A stretch of DNA of 64,000 bases from an uncultured bacterium. Lineage in GTDB: Bacteria > Cyanobacteriota > Vampirovibrionia > Gastranaerophilales > Gastranaerophilaceae. Position numbers and translations under genes: made by a program. The stretch is from NCBI GenBank assembly GCA_902489575.1, contig CABUAQ010000001.1:146-64145 (forward strand). The letters are read 5' to 3'. This document shows positions 44,611 through 59,322 of the stretch, one piece after another (the first letter of the stretch is position 1; each line of letters opens with the position of its first letter). Under the pieces are notes generated by a model. It was not told the origin of the DNA and did no database searches. It saw only the letters and a list, made by a program, of their open reading frames with translations.

Positions 44611-45285
44611 TTAGTAAGGCATAACCCAGTTATTTTCAATAACAGCAGCTGCACAATGATTAGCATTTCCAGCTTTACACATCGTTATTTTCTGGGCAAG
44701 TGTCAAATCCTCATTAAGAGGTGTAATCTTTCCTTTTCTGGTTATATAGAAACAGAAGTAATCCCTACCCCACATATTTGGACCATCATTAGCGTTAACA
44801 TCCATACAAAAATCAGAAATAACGTCATCTGTTGTATCAGCATAATAAACTTGCTTAGTGACAAGAGAGTACGATATAATACCGCCGTTTTGGAGCAATA
44901 TACTTGTATATCCAGCTCCTACCGGAGTAGCTGTTCCACCATTTAAATTACGATAAGTAATCAATTTTCCCTGCTCATCCTGAGTTGTTTTCCAACAATC
45001 TTTTGCGGAATCAGCACAAGTTTTAGCAACCGAGAAATTTGAATTTGTCAGTAATGTTGCAGGATTTTTAAAATCTGTTTCCAATAAATTTTTTGTTTTA
45101 TGCGCAATAAGCTGATCAAAAATAAGTTGTTGAACCGAACCTACCGTACTTTTTAACTGAGTTGTCAGCAATCTGTTATTTATAGAAATTAACAAACTTG
45201 GTACTGACAAGGCAGCAATAGCACCAACAATACCCAATGCTACCAATAATTCTGTTAACGTAAATGCATTCTTATTATTTATCAT
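44611..45285 (-). CDS. Type IV pilin-like protein
   Basis: Start at ATG 45285 (SD AAAGGAG): MINNKNA|FTLTELLVALGIVGAIAALSVPSLL. C-terminal Cys pair '..MCKAGNANHCAAAVIENNWVMPY'. Confidence 0.85.
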   Translation of the reverse strand: MINNKNAFTLTELLVALGIVGAIAALSVPSLLISINNRLLTTQLKSTVGSVQQLIFDQLIAHKTKNLLETDFKNPATLLTNSNFSVAKTCADSAKDCWKTTQDEQGKLITYRNLNGGTATPVGAGYTSILLQNGGIISYSLVTKQVYYADTTDDVISDFCMDVNANDGPNMWGRDYFCFYITRKGKITPLNEDLTLAQKITMCKAGNANHCAAAVIENNWVMPY

Positions 45286-45295
45286 AAAAACTCCT

Positions 45296-45988
45296 TTAAT
45301 TATCATTTACCAAATAGTTCGGATCAAATCCTGTCAACACCGCCAGTGTATAACAAGCATAGGGTTTACCGTTTGCTTTGCAATCTGCACGATTTACTGC
45401 AATATCCTCACTGTGCTCAAGATGATCCCCAGTGTGGATTCCATTATTTAAATCGTTCTCATCAGACAATTCCAACTCAAAAAGATCAACCCCGGCAATA
45501 TTTGGTTCTTTATTACCGTTCAAATCAATATTGAAAAGTACGGCTTTCCTCCCATTATACTTTGCACTTGATGCAGATCTGGGTGCTAACAATCCAATAC
45601 CTACCCCCGTTTTTAATAAAACCGAAGCATTATACGTTCCAGTACCGATGCCACTTACGGCAGTTCGATCAAAGTTTTTATACCCTCCCTCCGGAAAATA
45701 TATTAGTGTTCCGCTGCCCTGACCATCTACTACATCAAACTTGTTAAGAAACTTTTCCGGATTTTTAAATATATCAGTATCTGAAAGCTTTCTGGCGCCT
45801 GTTTGTATAAGCTCATTTTGAACAAGATCATTCAAATTTGACACAGTTCCCTGTAACAACGCCATTGATGACCTATTTTGAATATCTTTTATTACCCCTG
45901 CTATTACCAATGCTGCAACCGTTCCAATAACAGTTAATGCTATAAGAACCTCAGATAGCGTAAAACCATCTTTTTTTATCTTAATCAT
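45296..45988 (-). CDS. Type IV pilin-like protein (canonical Gly at -1)
   Basis: MIKIKKDG|FTLSEVLIALTVIGTVAALVIAGVI. Immediately upstream of 44611..45285. Confidence 0.85.
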   Translation of the reverse strand: MIKIKKDGFTLSEVLIALTVIGTVAALVIAGVIKDIQNRSSMALLQGTVSNLNDLVQNELIQTGARKLSDTDIFKNPEKFLNKFDVVDGQGSGTLIYFPEGGYKNFDRTAVSGIGTGTYNASVLLKTGVGIGLLAPRSASSAKYNGRKAVLFNIDLNGNKEPNIAGVDLFELELSDENDLNNGIHTGDHLEHSEDIAVNRADCKANGKPYACYTLAVLTGFDPNYLVNDN

Positions 45989-53483: not shown

Positions 53484-54752
53484 ATGAAAAAATTATTAGC
53501 TTGTTTAATAGTAGGTGGTTTCTTAGCCATTAACACTATGCCTGCATTCTCATACCAGGGTATTGACGATGTAGAACAAAATTACTGGGCGCAGCCGGAA
53601 ATTGCAAGTGTTGTTGCCGATTCTGTTATGACTCTAAATAATGGAAACTTCAATCCTGAAGGTACTATGACAAGGGTTGAATTTGTTAAGGCTTTATTAA
53701 AAGTTTTAGGAAACGATGACCTTGAAATAACTTCTAACGTTAGATTTTCGGATGTAAAAACATCTAGTAAAGAATACGCTCCAATTGCAAGATCTCAGCA
53801 ATTAGGCTTAGTTTACGGCTATCCTAACGGAACATTCCAACCAAATAAAGCAGTCTTAAGAGATGAAGCTCAATCTGTAATAAGCCACATTACAATTGAA
53901 GGTGATGTTGACAGAGCAATAGTTACTAAATTCTCTGATGCTGCTAAAGTTCCATCTTGGGCTAACGAAGTTTATGCAAAAACATTGTCTTATGGTATTT
54001 ACGTAAATCACCCTGATGAAAACGAATTAAGACCAACTGATGAATTATCCAGAGCAGAAGCTGCTGTTTTACTATACAAATTAAGACAAAGACTTGATCT
54101 TGTTAAATCTCAATACAAAAAAGAAACCATTTTAGGTACTGAACATTTAACAATGGTTAAAAAAGCTCCAAACCACGATGTTACTATTACAAATATCAGA
54201 AACATCATCTTGGAAGGTAACGTTTTAGAAGTATCTTTCAATGAAGCTTTTAAGTCAAAATTGCACGCAGCTGGTGATGCTGTAACATTTACAAACCCTG
54301 AAGATATTAAAACTGATGAAGGAACTTTATTAATCCCTGCAGGGTCAATTTTCTCAGGATTAGTTTTGGATATTAAAGAACCACAATGGTTCAATAAGAA
54401 TGCAAGAGTTTATGTCCAGCTAAACAAAATTACAACTCCTTGCGGTAAAACAGTTGACCTTAACGCAAAACCTTTCTACAAAGACTATGCATTAAAAGAA
54501 GGTCCTTGGATGACCGCCGGTAAAGTTGCACTATACACAGTGGGTGGTGCTGCTGTCGGTACAGGCGCAGGTGTTGGATTTTCATTCATCCCTTCCCCTG
54601 ATAAAATCGGGACTGGTATTGCTATCGGAACTCCGGTTGGTGCAGGTATCGGTTTGATCACAGGTTTAGTAACTCCAGGTTTAAACTATAGCGCTAAAAA
54701 CGGGGAATCTATTAAAGTTATCTTACTTGAAGATGCAAGTATCTGCAAATAA
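53484..54752 (+). CDS. SLH-domain envelope protein with a Gly-rich hydrophobic C-terminal segment
   Basis: Signal peptide. Three SLH-like units ('YWAQPEIASVV..', 'FSDVKTSSKEYAPIARSQQLGLVYGYPNGTFQP', 'FSDAAKVPSWANEVYAKTL..'). C-terminal 'VGGAAVGTGAGVGFSF...GIAIGTPVGAGIGLITGLV'. Confidence 0.8.
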   Translation: MKKLLACLIVGGFLAINTMPAFSYQGIDDVEQNYWAQPEIASVVADSVMTLNNGNFNPEGTMTRVEFVKALLKVLGNDDLEITSNVRFSDVKTSSKEYAPIARSQQLGLVYGYPNGTFQPNKAVLRDEAQSVISHITIEGDVDRAIVTKFSDAAKVPSWANEVYAKTLSYGIYVNHPDENELRPTDELSRAEAAVLLYKLRQRLDLVKSQYKKETILGTEHLTMVKKAPNHDVTITNIRNIILEGNVLEVSFNEAFKSKLHAAGDAVTFTNPEDIKTDEGTLLIPAGSIFSGLVLDIKEPQWFNKNARVYVQLNKITTPCGKTVDLNAKPFYKDYALKEGPWMTAGKVALYTVGGAAVGTGAGVGFSFIPSPDKIGTGIAIGTPVGAGIGLITGLVTPGLNYSAKNGESIKVILLEDASICK

Positions 54753-54947: not shown

Positions 54948-55229
54948 ATGAAAAATTTATTTGCAACATTCACATTATTGGCGTTTTTAACCATTCCTGC
55001 CCAGGGAGCATTTGCTTGGAGCTATGAAGGACTTAACAGTTTAAACCCGTTTACTGGTTTTAGACAATGTAACAAGTGCGTAAAAGTAGAGAAATGTAAG
55101 AAACCAAAACTTACAAAATGTGAAAAATTACACGGAGTAAAAATTAAACGTGGTCAGCCTTGCGGTTGTGCTGCACCAATTATAATGGAACCCGTACAAA
55201 AATGCACTAATTGCCAAAGAGCATTTTAA
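54948..55229 (+). CDS. Small secreted cysteine-rich protein
   Basis: SD AAGGAG. Signal peptide MKNLFATFTLLAFLTIPAQGAFA. 70-aa mature part with 9 Cys (..QCNKCVKVEKCKKPKLTKCEK..PCGCAAP..KCTNCQ..). Confidence 0.65.
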   Translation: MKNLFATFTLLAFLTIPAQGAFAWSYEGLNSLNPFTGFRQCNKCVKVEKCKKPKLTKCEKLHGVKIKRGQPCGCAAPIIMEPVQKCTNCQRAF

Positions 55230-56273: not shown

Positions 56274-56447
56274 ATGTATCAAGACGAAGTTTTTGAAAGT
56301 GCATTGAAAGAAACACGTGAAGAAAGTTTTAAAGCGCTGCAAAGCGAAGTTAAAACTGTTGAACAGATTATTGAAAGACTATTAACACAACTTTTAGAAT
56401 GTTCTTCATCAGTAACCGAACGGGATTTCCACGTTTGCGGAATTTAG
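56274..56447 (+). CDS. Candidate small helical protein (57 aa), below the ORF-track cutoff
   Basis: AGGAG 8 nt upstream of ATG 56274. MYQDEVFESALKETREESFKALQSEVKTVEQIIERLLTQLLECSSSVTERDFHVCGI, stop 56445-56447. A strong terminator follows 20 nt downstream. Confidence 0.5.
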   Translation: MYQDEVFESALKETREESFKALQSEVKTVEQIIERLLTQLLECSSSVTERDFHVCGI

Positions 56448-56468: not shown

Positions 56469-56497
56469 AAGAGCCGTAATTTCATTACGGCTCTTTT
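56469..56497. terminator. Terminator hairpin (12-bp stem)
   Basis: AAGAGCCGTAAT (56469-56480) / ATTACGGCTCTT (56484-56495), then TT. Lies between the small + ORF and the end of the minus gene at 56516. Confidence 0.75.
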
Positions 56498-56515: not shown

Positions 56516-57622
56516 TTAACCGGTATATTTAAATATATGTCCCTGATTCAATCCTGAATATATGTTTCCGCAACCAAATCCCTGACTTATAGACGGGTTG
56601 AAGTTATTATATCCAACCCCTGATGAAATAAACGGATTTGAATATAAGTTGTTATAGCCGAACTGTGAATTAAAATTATTCATATATGGCATAGAATAAC
56701 TAAATGGATTGTAAGAACTGTAAGGAGTTTGAGTATATTGTTGAAGCTGTTTTTCCAAAGCTTCAATTTCAGCCTTTAATTCTTGAATTTGTGACGGAGC
56801 ATTCTCAACCGCAGGTTTTACAACTCTTGTGTTGTCAGACGGGGCAACACTTTCTTGATTATCTTTTTCTTGCATTGCTGCTTGATCTTCTGCAATAGCT
56901 TTTGAAATATCTTCCATTGAGTAACCATTCTGACGAAGTTGCTCAATTTCTTCATCACTAAAACCATATTCTTTTAAGGCTGCAATATCATCTTCTGTGT
57001 ACTGAGGAAGTTGTGCCTGAGCTTCTGCCTCAGCCTTTTTATCTGAGTAAGTTTTACCTCTTAAAAGACTACCTCCTATAGCGCCGACAATACCACCGAT
57101 TACAGTGCCAATACCCGGACAGATAGCAGACCCGATAGCCGCACCGGCTGCCATGCAGCCCAGTTCAACCGCAGCTCCACCAACTTCTTTCATCCCGGCA
57201 CCGAATCCGCCTTCGCTGAAGGCTGTATATAAGTTTGGAACCTCAAACAATACTGTTAAAGCTGCTCCAATAAAAGGCATTTTCTTTCCAATACCCCTTA
57301 GTAAACCCTTTGTACCGCCTAAAAAAGCACTTTTACCAGCCATTTTTGCAGCTCTGGCTCCGGCTTTTACGCTATTTTTAATTGTTCCTGGAGTATTCAC
57401 CAAATTTTTAAAAACTCGTTTAGCAAAGCCGCCTTCTTTTATAGCTTTTTTAGCAGTGTCATTTTCTAAGGCGTGTACACCTGCTTTCACTTTTTTAAAG
57501 ATTGAGCCCTTCTGTTTATTCATAGCCTTTCCGGCAATTTCTGCACTATCACCAAGCAAAAATTCAGGTGTAATTTTCCATGCGCGTTTTGCATAATTAA
57601 CAACTGATGATATTAATCCCAT
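56516..57622 (-). CDS. Glycine-zipper membrane protein with an N/Y/P/S-rich low-complexity tail (paralog 1)
   Basis: 368 aa. Basic amphipathic N-region, 'GIGKKMPFIGAALTVLFEVPNLYTAF', Gly-zipper 'GGAAVELGCMAAGAAIGSAICPGIGTVIGGIVGAIGGSLL', 'GKTYSDKKAEAEAQ', coiled segment, tail '..YSSYNPFSYSMPYMNNFNSQFGYNNLYSNPF..'. Confidence 0.75.
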   Translation of the reverse strand: MGLISSVVNYAKRAWKITPEFLLGDSAEIAGKAMNKQKGSIFKKVKAGVHALENDTAKKAIKEGGFAKRVFKNLVNTPGTIKNSVKAGARAAKMAGKSAFLGGTKGLLRGIGKKMPFIGAALTVLFEVPNLYTAFSEGGFGAGMKEVGGAAVELGCMAAGAAIGSAICPGIGTVIGGIVGAIGGSLLRGKTYSDKKAEAEAQAQLPQYTEDDIAALKEYGFSDEEIEQLRQNGYSMEDISKAIAEDQAAMQEKDNQESVAPSDNTRVVKPAVENAPSQIQELKAEIEALEKQLQQYTQTPYSSYNPFSYSMPYMNNFNSQFGYNNLYSNPFISSGVGYNNFNPSISQGFGCGNIYSGLNQGHIFKYTG

Positions 57623-57696
57623 TTTTAATTCTCCAATTTTAATCCCCTATATTTTTATTAAGTATTTTATTTATATAAAATTGCTGATTGTATTAA

Positions 57697-57733
57697 GAAA
57701 TGTAAAAGGACCTTATTTAATCCTAAGGTCCTT
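57697..57733 (-). terminator. Terminator after paralog 2
   Basis: AAGGACCTTA (57706-57715) / TAAGGTCCTT (57724-57733), followed on the minus strand by TTTTACATTT. Confidence 0.7.
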
Positions 57734-57761
57734 ATTGTTTATGCGCGTTATCAATTATTTT

Positions 57762-58568
57762 TTAAGCTAAGGTATTAAATCCCATTTGCTGCATCATTAT
57801 ATCATTTGCATAAGGATTGGCGTAATCATTGTATAGAGGATTTGTCATTCCGCTGTATGGATTTGGGTTATATGCGTACGGATTTCCCTGAAACGGAGGT
57901 TGTTGATAAGTCTGCGGAGTTTCATATTCAGCTTGAGCTTGTACTGCTGCTTCTTCTGCTTCCATTTTCTTTTCAGAATAAGTTTTACCGACAACTTTTC
58001 CTGTCAACCATTCACCTGCAACCCAACCAACCATTGCTCCGATTGGTCCGCCAACAGCTGCACCGATTGCACCGCCGATTGCACCGCCGGTTAAACGGCT
58101 TGCTGTTTTAGCAGTTTCTTTTAAGCCAGTACCTATACCTTGTTCCTTAGTTGCCGTCCAAATATTAGGAAGTTCAAATGCCAATGTTAAAACAGCACCG
58201 ATGAACGGCATCTTTTTACCTATGCCTTTAAAAAATCCCTTTGTTCCACCCCAAAATGCACTTTTATGAGCGCTTTTGGCAGCTGCTACACCGGCTTTTC
58301 TACTTTCATTTAAAGATTTCCATAAATTTTTAGGATTTAAATTTGCACCCAGCCGTCTGAAAAAGCCGCCCTTACTGAGCTGCTTTGCAGCTATATCATC
58401 TTCAAGCGCTTTAAAACCTGCTTTAGCTTTATTTAATACTGAACCTTTTTGTGAACGCATTGCAGCGCCGACAACATCACTGCCGGTTCCTAATACAAAT
58501 TCCGGATAAACATTTAAAACTCTTTTCCCATACTTAACTAATCGGGGAGCAAATGATACTAAACCCAT
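57762..58568 (-). CDS. Glycine-zipper membrane protein with an N/Y/P-rich tail (paralog 2)
   Basis: 268 aa, colinear with 56516..57622 (PEFVLG, QKGS, KSAFWGGTKG..GIGKKMPFIGAVLTLAFELPNIWTA, GGAIGGAIGAAVGGPIGAMVGWVAGEW, GKTYSEKKMEAEEA). Tail 'GNPYAYNPNPYSGMTNPLYNDYANPYAND'. Confidence 0.75.
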   Translation of the reverse strand: MGLVSFAPRLVKYGKRVLNVYPEFVLGTGSDVVGAAMRSQKGSVLNKAKAGFKALEDDIAAKQLSKGGFFRRLGANLNPKNLWKSLNESRKAGVAAAKSAHKSAFWGGTKGFFKGIGKKMPFIGAVLTLAFELPNIWTATKEQGIGTGLKETAKTASRLTGGAIGGAIGAAVGGPIGAMVGWVAGEWLTGKVVGKTYSEKKMEAEEAAVQAQAEYETPQTYQQPPFQGNPYAYNPNPYSGMTNPLYNDYANPYANDIMMQQMGFNTLA

Positions 58569-58647: not shown

Positions 58648-58681
58648 CGAGAAAGTGTTAACAATTGTTAACACTTTCTCG
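58648..58681. repeat. Perfect 34-bp palindrome (16-nt arms)
   Basis: CGAGAAAGTGTTAACA-AT-TGTTAACACTTTCTCG, 20 nt downstream of the stop of pilin-like gene 58702..59322. Possible terminator stem or operator. Confidence 0.9.
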
Positions 58682-58701: not shown

Positions 58702-59322
58702 CTAGAATTTAATTGGATAATCGCTCTTAAATTCCCATTGATCATTTTGCAACAGCCTGGTACAACTGGATCTATTATTTACACATTGGTCTATCATAGC
58801 TTGACGGGAAGTAGCTTGGCTAGTTATACCAGATCCATACACCCCAAAAAATATATCCTCACTGCCAAAGTAGTCTCTTCTACCGTCTTTATTGAAACAA
58901 TATAAGAATCTATACTGATCGTACCCCTCAGAATTAGGTGATTTATCACCGTTTACATCGTAAATAACATCCAAACATCCACCGGTAAAAAAAGTTCCCA
59001 GCTTACTTCCGTCTTTATAATATACCTGCTTTGTCGCTGTATCCACAAACTGATGCCCCATATACGGATCAATATTTTCCATATACCAATCAAAGCCATT
59101 ACCCTGGGTCGGAAGAATCATATCTTTAAATGAACCTTTATCCATCTGCATATCAAGCACCGCATTATCCATTTTGCTGTAGAAATTCTTCAATTTTGCC
59201 GAATATTCTTTCTTAACTCTGTTATAATTCAATGTAGGAATTGTCAGTGCTGCAACTACACCGACAATTGTCATTGTTATCATAACTTCCGCTAAAGTAA
59301 ATGCCCATTTTTTTTGCATCAT
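58702..59322 (-). CDS. Type IV pilin-like protein
   Basis: MMQKKWA|FTLAEVMITMTIVGVVAALTIPTL. C-terminal 'DQCVNNRSSCTRLLQNDQWEFKSDYPIKF' shares the Cys-loop and W..DYP tail of the family. Confidence 0.85.
   Translation of the reverse strand: MMQKKWAFTLAEVMITMTIVGVVAALTIPTLNYNRVKKEYSAKLKNFYSKMDNAVLDMQMDKGSFKDMILPTQGNGFDWYMENIDPYMGHQFVDTATKQVYYKDGSKLGTFFTGGCLDVIYDVNGDKSPNSEGYDQYRFLYCFNKDGRRDYFGSEDIFFGVYGSGITSQATSRQAMIDQCVNNRSSCTRLLQNDQWEFKSDYPIKF

Follow-up and report, generated by a model that had tools for sequence, protein, structure and literature searches.

The 64,000-nucleotide window analysed here (contig CABUAQ010000001.1 of assembly GCA_902489575.1, positions 146 to 64,145; G+C ~34%) derives from an uncultured member of the Gastranaerophilaceae whose genome assembly (1.97 Mb in 160 contigs, 99% complete) contains only two copies of the gene family described below. 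These lie in tandem on the minus strand and are designated SHORT (protein P0002, 268 amino acids (aa); 57762..58568) and LONG (protein P0001, 368 aa; 56516..57622), while X denotes a second, more distant paralog found in other genomes. Sequence comparison indicates that SHORT and LONG represent a real, conserved and undescribed protein family arranged as a two-gene module, in which only the central glycine-zipper hairpin has known relatives. Our preferred interpretation, to which we accord somewhat less than an even chance, is that the two proteins form a hetero-oligomeric housekeeping scaffold, which would face the cytoplasm and be anchored to the membrane by this hairpin.

Both genes, assigned from their open reading frames (ORFs) and translations, were found on the strand and at the positions given by the original prediction, which had been made from the DNA alone, and its description of the pair as tandem paralogs colinear over approximately 200 aa was borne out by BLASTP, in which 201 residues aligned at 49% identity (E 4e-47). 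In LONG the homologous part comprises the head and core, aa 1-200 (57023..57622; the coordinates of all parts of the two genes refer to the minus strand), which is colinear with aa 1-205 of SHORT and is matched at E 7.5e-75 by A2, a profile of the shared head-plus-core domain. The motifs singled out earlier, namely MGL[IV]S, PEF[LV]LG, QKGS, KAG..ALE.D, KSAF.GGTKG...GIGKKMPFIGA, the Gly/Ala zipper and GKTYS[DE]KK, are all present in this alignment. A good Shine-Dalgarno sequence precedes both start codons and the N-termini are conserved in orthologs.

The head of SHORT (aa 1-110; 58239..58568), delimited by its charge and by the helices of the AlphaFold2 (AF2) model, is all-helical and strongly basic, with 20 K+R as against 6 D+E and a predicted local distance difference test score (pLDDT) of 82-94, and heads across the family carry on average 18 K+R versus 6 D+E, corresponding to a net charge of ~ +12. 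A possible internal duplication within the head was not accepted (hhalign probability 15%, P 0.0017). The head begins with a conserved MG[LI]xS, which runs directly into the 110-aa basic helical region and resembles the MGxxxS of N-myristoylation, with the conserved Ser one position off the eukaryotic consensus; this is an idea only, and we know of no N-myristoylation enzyme in bacteria. Neither SHORT nor LONG displays a hydrophobic, signal-peptide-like N-terminus, as judged by inspection and hydropathy, in agreement with the original prediction.

The core follows at aa 111-205 of SHORT (57954..58238), as defined by conservation, hydropathy and matches to PHROG phage protein families, and consists of GKKMP-FIGAVLTLAF-ELPN, a loop, the Gly-zipper helix GGAIGGAIGAAVGGPIGAMVGWVAGEW and then GKTYSEKK. 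Conservation within the family peaks over aa ~100-205, where G177 and G181 do not vary and the positions conserved at at least 90% include K110, K118, P121, P134, N135, G144, G148, E151, G185, G194, K195 and E199. It contains two long helices with short Gly/Ala-rich segments, the first of which (H1) has only ~10 apolar residues, lying between P121 and the conserved E132-x-P-N, while the second (H2), which is the zipper, spans ~27 residues with a central Pro/Gly. The 'hydrophobic hairpin' proposed earlier calls for qualification, as its two apolar segments are short and only marginally hydrophobic, the best 19-residue Kyte-Doolittle value having a median of 1.29 for H1 and 1.62 for H2. As K and R are abundant in the loop between the helices and in both flanks (3.3-3.7 K+R each), no segment looks translocated, and the core seems more consistent with an insertion from the cytoplasmic side that is shallow or re-entrant, or with a switch from a soluble to a membrane-bound state, than with two classical transmembrane helices.

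The C-terminal tails are of a different character. That of SHORT (aa 206-268; 57765..57953) comprises a short acidic helix and then a disordered, P/N/Y/Q-rich part with three NP[YF] motifs, and ends in the conserved peptide YANDIMMQQMGFNTLA; that of LONG (aa 299-368; 56519..56728) is S/N/Y/F/G-rich, contains two NP[YF] motifs and ends in ...HIFKYTG. Both tails, which were delimited by pLDDT, composition and their terminal motifs, are modelled as disordered, with pLDDT values of 46-60 for SHORT and ~40 for LONG. The short-class end, ...NPYA[ND]DIMMQxxNFNT[LIV]A, is present in 81 of 114 family members, and the long class shares a terminal NQYF[KR]Y[TV][GA] together with NPYxNDM[LF]YQQxF, a relative of the short-class motif. 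Conservation of tail composition among orthologs had been chosen beforehand as the test by which the original description of N/Q/Y/P/S/F-rich tails could be refuted, and the composition proved to be conserved over the 114 members: N+Q has a median of 26% and K+R of 3%, and N/Q/Y/F/P/S/G/M together account for 64%. Within these tails NP[YF] occurs 203 times as compared to 10.1 expected from within-tail shuffles, representing a ~20-fold enrichment. Tails of this kind are rare in the source genome, being confined among its 4149 ORFs to SHORT, LONG and one small secreted ORF, and an origin of the tails from DNA tandem repeats was dropped, as none were found beneath them. The tails have the Q/N-rich, charge-poor composition of prion-like domains, but the term 'amyloid-prone' that had been applied to them is uncertain given the proline content (median ~8%, and 13% in the short paralog), the frequent NP[YF] turns and the conserved C-terminal peptide, and the tails look more like a multivalent array of short motifs than a plain prion domain. 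A partial analogy, without homology, is offered by hub proteins such as SSB and FtsZ, in which a folded domain is followed by a disordered linker and a conserved C-terminal tip, and by the cohesive FG/NPF-type repeats of eukaryotes; in common with these the pair has a disordered low-charge linker with short motifs and a conserved terminal peptide, but it bears no sequence relation to any of them and its anchor would be a membrane hairpin. The nonpolar ...[LIV]A terminus of the short class faintly resembles the end, YALAA, of the tag peptide encoded by the transfer-messenger RNA (tmRNA) of the source genome (AKNNVIEADFSRAYALAA, contig C133), which raises the idea that it might serve as a tmRNA-tag-like degron.

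LONG differs from SHORT by the acidic insert that had been noted in the longer protein (aa 201-298; 56729..57022), which was delimited by the AF2 model and by conservation within the class. The insert is helical over aa ~200-298, and aa 201-368 as a whole have a net charge of -12. It contains a three-helix mini-domain at aa ~205-257 with two G[FY]SxE[ED]I motifs (pLDDT 91-97 over aa 205-250) and a further helix at aa 276-297, is conserved in the long class and is duplicated in some members, and its only database echo consists of marginal MerR_1 and MerR-DNA-bind matches corresponding to the MerR helix-turn region.

Distribution and gene order provide the second line of evidence. A word-indexed search returned 215 relatives, all of which are unnamed or annotated as 'hypothetical', the few that carry an organism name being assigned to Cyanobacteriota or Candidatus Gastranaerophilaceae, while an exhaustive phmmer search of 1.8 billion cluster representatives gave 403 matches at E <=1e-3 and 186 at E <=1e-10. 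Of 36 genomes searched within the genus of the source genome, 35 carry the head-plus-core, for the most part as two tandem copies, and profile A2 matched 87 of the 98 genomes of the taxonomic family as compared to 4 of ~200 in other families of the class. The gene is thus restricted to Candidatus Gastranaerophilaceae (Melainabacteria), where it is near-universal and apparently vertically inherited. Other genomes of the class encode distant paralogs (L020-L025) of 300-640 aa, which combine the shared hydrophobic core with a long helical head and with a Q/N/Y-rich tail whose last residues are small or aromatic, and those of their contexts that were looked at consist of unrelated housekeeping genes; the superfamily thus extends beyond the pair.

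Several genera share a block composed of isocitrate/isopropylmalate dehydrogenase (Iso_dh), SHORT, a second gene, a 57-aa gene on the opposite strand, a PRK-family kinase, a Cys-rich secreted protein, an S-layer homology (SLH) protein and pyruvate kinase, and in the genus of the source genome PALP and pilin-like genes stand in place of Iso_dh. The second gene is always a paralog, and in most genera it is X rather than LONG. X proteins are 410-570 aa in length; their helical head is more extended, their hydrophobic core corresponds to that of the pair (hhalign probability 97.9%, E 3e-13 against A2), and they further possess an acidic helical region and a tail rich in N, F, M and Y. The X profile matched 84 of 100 genomes, representing 53 of the 60 genera of the family, and X adjoins SHORT in all 15 genomes for which coordinates were compared. 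No X was found in the source genome with a hidden Markov model that included two X sequences of the same genus, while two species of the genus (L005 and L009) still possess SHORT and X. In a tree of the head-plus-core domain the long-class sequences group in a single clade (support 97/89) that falls inside the diversity of the short class, which identifies LONG as a recent duplicate of SHORT, the latter representing the ancestral, family-wide class. On this phylogeny and gene order, LONG occupies the position that X holds in other genera, and the pair is taken to be the local form of the two-gene module. As a pair of paralogs has been kept side by side across the whole family, the two proteins may be expected to work together, which suggests a heteromer. 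One metagenomic protein, P0029 (265 aa, from a 1-kb contig), combines a head-plus-core identical to that of the long-class P0074 with a short-class tail, a combination that is due either to gene conversion among the tandem copies or to a chimeric assembly.

The original prediction did not recognise the family, and the profile and structure searches agree with it. In Pfam and NCBIfam neither the two proteins nor any of the 114 members had a match above cut-off, the sub-threshold matches being limited to glycine-zipper, C19orf12 and EI24 families; P0001 scored 14.0 bits against PF05433, for which the cut-off is 24.2, P0002 did not match it, and PF13488 reached E <=0.01 in only 10 of the 114. Sequence searches of the PDB, whether started from the individual proteins or from the profiles A1 and A2, returned nothing real, and Foldseek comparison of both AF2 models with the PDB gave best E values of 0.9-1.9 at a template modelling (TM) score of ~0.2, with no colicin or other pore-former fold. 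Like the Pfam zipper families PF13488 (Gly-zipper_Omp), PF05433 (Rick_17kDa_Anti) and PF13441 (YMGG) and the membrane hairpin of the dynamin-like LeoB and of PDC-M09B (both PADLOC profiles), the pair contains a GxxxG/AxxxG helix-turn-helix of ~50 aa, but it scores below the Pfam cut-offs and has neither a lipoprotein signal nor a GTPase domain, no GTPase family being matched by SHORT or LONG. Membership of a defence system was dropped, since the LeoB and PDC-M09B matches cover mainly the zipper helix (~45-85 aa), with the exception of that between P0001 and LeoB, which extends over aa 139-287.

The glycine zipper noted at the outset is real, and is the sole part of the proteins with known relatives, these being membrane-inserting modules. 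Among the 114 members, 101 match phrog_1047 (best E 5e-15), 64 match phrog_167 and 51 match phrog_794, profiles which represent tail-associated lysins, tape-measure proteins and endolysins; the signal lies in the core, and the head alone has no PHROG match. The corresponding module of tape-measure proteins and tail lysins (PHROGs 1047, 167, 794, 934 and 23574) is likewise ~100 aa in length and built of two Gly/Ala-rich, marginally hydrophobic helices, and its likely job, shared with the type VI secretion effector Tde1, is membrane insertion. A zipper hairpin, N-terminal in Tde1, is needed for membrane permeabilisation and translocation by that effector and has also been noted in tape-measure proteins (PMC10240207). 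We conclude that the core appears to have a kinship, at the level of a module and not of family membership, with the membrane-entering glycine-zipper hairpin of ejected and injected proteins; nothing equivalent to the basic head or to the NP[YF] tail exists in the tape-measure and tail-lysin families.

From this anatomy, conservation, paired arrangement, synteny, vertical distribution and module-level similarity of the core we infer membrane attachment and its orientation, hetero-oligomerisation and the action of the tails. Both proteins would be made in the cytoplasm, and the hairpin would attach them, in a re-entrant or shallow manner, to the inner membrane on its cytoplasmic side, for which we cite the lack of a signal peptide, the head charge of ~ +12, the K/R-rich flanks and loop, the shortness of H1 and the marginal 19-residue hydropathy values. 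The basic head would rest on anionic lipid, the two paralogs would pack through the zipper into hetero-oligomers and the tails would act as multivalent tethers, either recruiting a partner or cohering with each other, so that the whole may serve as a housekeeping membrane scaffold or organiser. In a more specific and rather improbable version, the hairpin would be an exapted phage-type membrane-penetration element, the paralogs would assemble into a hetero-oligomeric patch or ring in the inner membrane and their uncharged, multivalent NP[YF]/aromatic tails would form a membrane-anchored condensate or meshwork, similar to the FG or NPF repeat domains of eukaryotes, that organises or gates a membrane process.

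Several points weigh against a scaffold of this kind. Topology was judged by charge and hydropathy alone, and the two AF2 models disagree on the geometry of the hairpin (predicted TM scores of 0.46 in one and 0.61 in the other), for which reason their tertiary arrangement is not relied upon. The most frequently matched profile, phrog_1047, is promiscuous, as it also hits 7 of the 14 genomes used as controls, archaeal ones among them. Nothing points to an abundant structural protein: codon adaptation is ordinary, at the 45th-61st percentile for the full genes and the 18th-26th for the first 615 nt, so that high expression as deduced from codon usage was dropped, and a search for RNA sequencing runs found none listed. 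Furthermore, the marginal hydrophobicity of the core and its kinship with ejected and injected modules would fit a pore-former that switches from soluble to membrane-bound equally well.

Such a pore-former, be it a toxin, a two-peptide bacteriocin or a holin-like lysis protein, is the alternative that fares best, although we consider it unlikely. It supposes that the zipper hairpins oligomerise into pores, either in the membrane of a target or in that of the cell itself, and that the paralogs are the two components of one system, and it draws on the resemblance of the core to the modules with which tape-measure proteins, tail lysins and endolysins penetrate membranes, and on the combination of marginally hydrophobic helices with conserved acidic residues that is typical of soluble-to-membrane switches. 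Language-model leads to colicin (0.77), RTX and TspB clusters point in the same direction, with scores of 0.74-0.85 that lie below the reliable range. A pore-forming colicin domain folds into a globule of ten helices that buries a hydrophobic hairpin, and the Foldseek search of the PDB retrieved neither this nor any other pore-former fold. The closest natural precedent is the CdzC/CdzD pair of Caulobacter, contact-dependent glycine-zipper bacteriocins of ~85 aa which are patchily distributed and have leaders, an adjacent type I export system and a small membrane immunity protein (PMC5380434). The present pair is similar in consisting of two adjacent paralogous glycine-zipper proteins with aggregation-prone sequence, but its members are 268-368 aa in length rather than 5-10 kDa and have no leader peptide, no type I secretion gene lies in the immediate vicinity (the ABC pair found nearby consists of MlaE and an ATPase) and no small membrane immunity gene is adjacent, the conserved 57-aa neighbour being hydrophilic and encoded on the opposite strand. 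Moreover, the genes lie outside any mobile island and, within one family, are present almost universally, at a syntenic position and by vertical inheritance, which together with the missing leader, secretion and membrane-type immunity genes argues against a bacteriocin, and the hint in the original prediction at a bacteriocin or pore-forming function is accordingly a poor fit.

Less probable again is a phage-derived gene, whether the remnant or satellite form of a tape-measure or ejection protein or a domesticated fragment employed in superinfection exclusion or as part of a tailocin. The PHROG tape-measure and tail-lysin profiles match most members, the nearest structural cluster in the Atlas is the TMP_3 tape-measure cluster (TM 0.34-0.42) and the crAss cargo protein gp45 matches the zipper weakly (E 0.0024). 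Tape-measure proteins, however, are long rulers of hundreds to thousands of aa encoded within a tail module, whereas the members of the pair are far shorter, stand alone on the chromosome in a conserved block of housekeeping genes devoid of phage genes, and have neither tail genes nearby nor the long ruler coiled coil. The similarity is limited to the ~100-aa core and leaves the head unmatched, and phrog_1047 is a promiscuous profile. A tblastn search of 50,697 phage records returned nothing, even at E 10, a degenerate-pattern scan of IMG/VR found no relative and Foldseek comparison of the SHORT model with BFVD gave no significant match. An ancient exaptation of the module would be compatible with the scaffold that we favour.

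In the window the pair is preceded on the minus strand by a pilin-like gene of 206 aa (58702-59322), so that three minus-strand ORFs, pilin-like, SHORT and LONG, follow consecutively, and further neighbours are PALP, aminotransferase, MlaE with ABC ATPase, PRK, SLH protein and pyruvate kinase genes. The pilin-like gene, which the original prediction had correctly placed directly upstream, carries the prepilin N-methylation motif PF07963 (E 2e-5). As had also been predicted, each gene has its own terminator-like signal, a stable hairpin following each of the three with z-scores, computed against shuffles, of -3.6 to -8.0 and with weak U-tracts. The hairpin 3' of SHORT (57706..57733, minus strand), found by scanning, folds at -14.2 kcal/mol (z -3.6) and that 3' of LONG (56469..56495, minus strand) at -18.1 kcal/mol (z -5.1). 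Between the pilin-like gene and SHORT lies a perfect palindrome of 34 bp (58648-58681; -21.9 kcal/mol, z -8.0), which is far stronger than the other terminator-like hairpins here and has its U-run ~12 nt downstream.

ORFs with prepilin-type N-termini ([FL]T[LM][AS]E[VIL]...), ~43 in number and mostly of 200-290 aa, are scattered over the 2-Mb source genome, examples in the window being 1367-2128, 44611-45306, 45296-45988 and 58702-59322; one such gene that was checked in relatives matched DUF6613, and the repertoire is unusually large. The association of the pair with pilin-like genes envisaged by the original prediction did not hold in the census and neighbourhood comparison, as the genes upstream of the pair differ between genomes, and a functional link was rejected on account of this non-conserved adjacency and the genome-wide scatter. 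A further rival holds that the proteins leave the cell by an unrecognised, possibly pilin-linked route and that, on the surface or in the medium, their N/Q/Y-rich tails build amyloid-like fibres or an adhesive matrix; we consider this no likelier than a phage origin. In its favour, the tails are prion-like and almost charge-free, the LONG tail includes, as seen by inspection, proline-free stretches reaching 25 aa, the source genome has a pilin-like gene beside the pair, and the long-class end YF[KR]Y.G, with its alternating aromatics, faintly recalls outer-membrane beta-signals. Against it, neither a signal peptide nor any other known export signal is present, the basic head and the K/R-rich loops point to the cytoplasm, the pilin adjacency is not conserved and such genes are scattered over the genome, and the median tail, with its ~8% proline, is interrupted by NP[YF] turns.

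Three other genes of the conserved block are present on the plus strand. Convergent with LONG is the ORF for the hydrophilic 57-aa protein (56274-56447), which we regard as a real gene because it is kept at the same position in other genera with 41-57% identity; it has no Pfam or PADLOC family, and may be functionally linked to the pair. The secreted Cys-rich protein (93 aa; 54948-55229) has at least eight Cys residues with CxxC-like spacing, is conserved in the block and has no Pfam family. The SLH protein (422 aa; 53484-54752; PF00395, E 3e-22) has a signal peptide and a glycine-zipper-rich, hydrophobic C-terminus, and is retained in this block at 58-63% identity in different genera; no match to the tape-measure PHROGs was obtained with its zipper.

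Gastranaerophilaceae are common, uncultured gut relatives of cyanobacteria whose cell biology is almost unstudied, and the literature on Gastranaerophilales ultrastructure yielded nothing relevant to the pair. The family described here, amounting to ~400 clusters at 50% identity, falls outside the current domain databases, and its build is unusual in that a hairpin typical of phage- and secretion-injected proteins is joined to a basic head and to a multivalent, prion-like tail with a conserved tip. Should the proteins prove to be pore-formers, they would be unusual in being chromosomal and universally conserved. If, as we favour, they form a scaffold, they would provide a tractable example of a membrane-tethered low-complexity domain in bacteria and of a phage-type hairpin reused for housekeeping, and if the tails do in addition form a condensate, the pair would constitute a membrane-tethered, phase-separating scaffold of a kind not described in bacteria.

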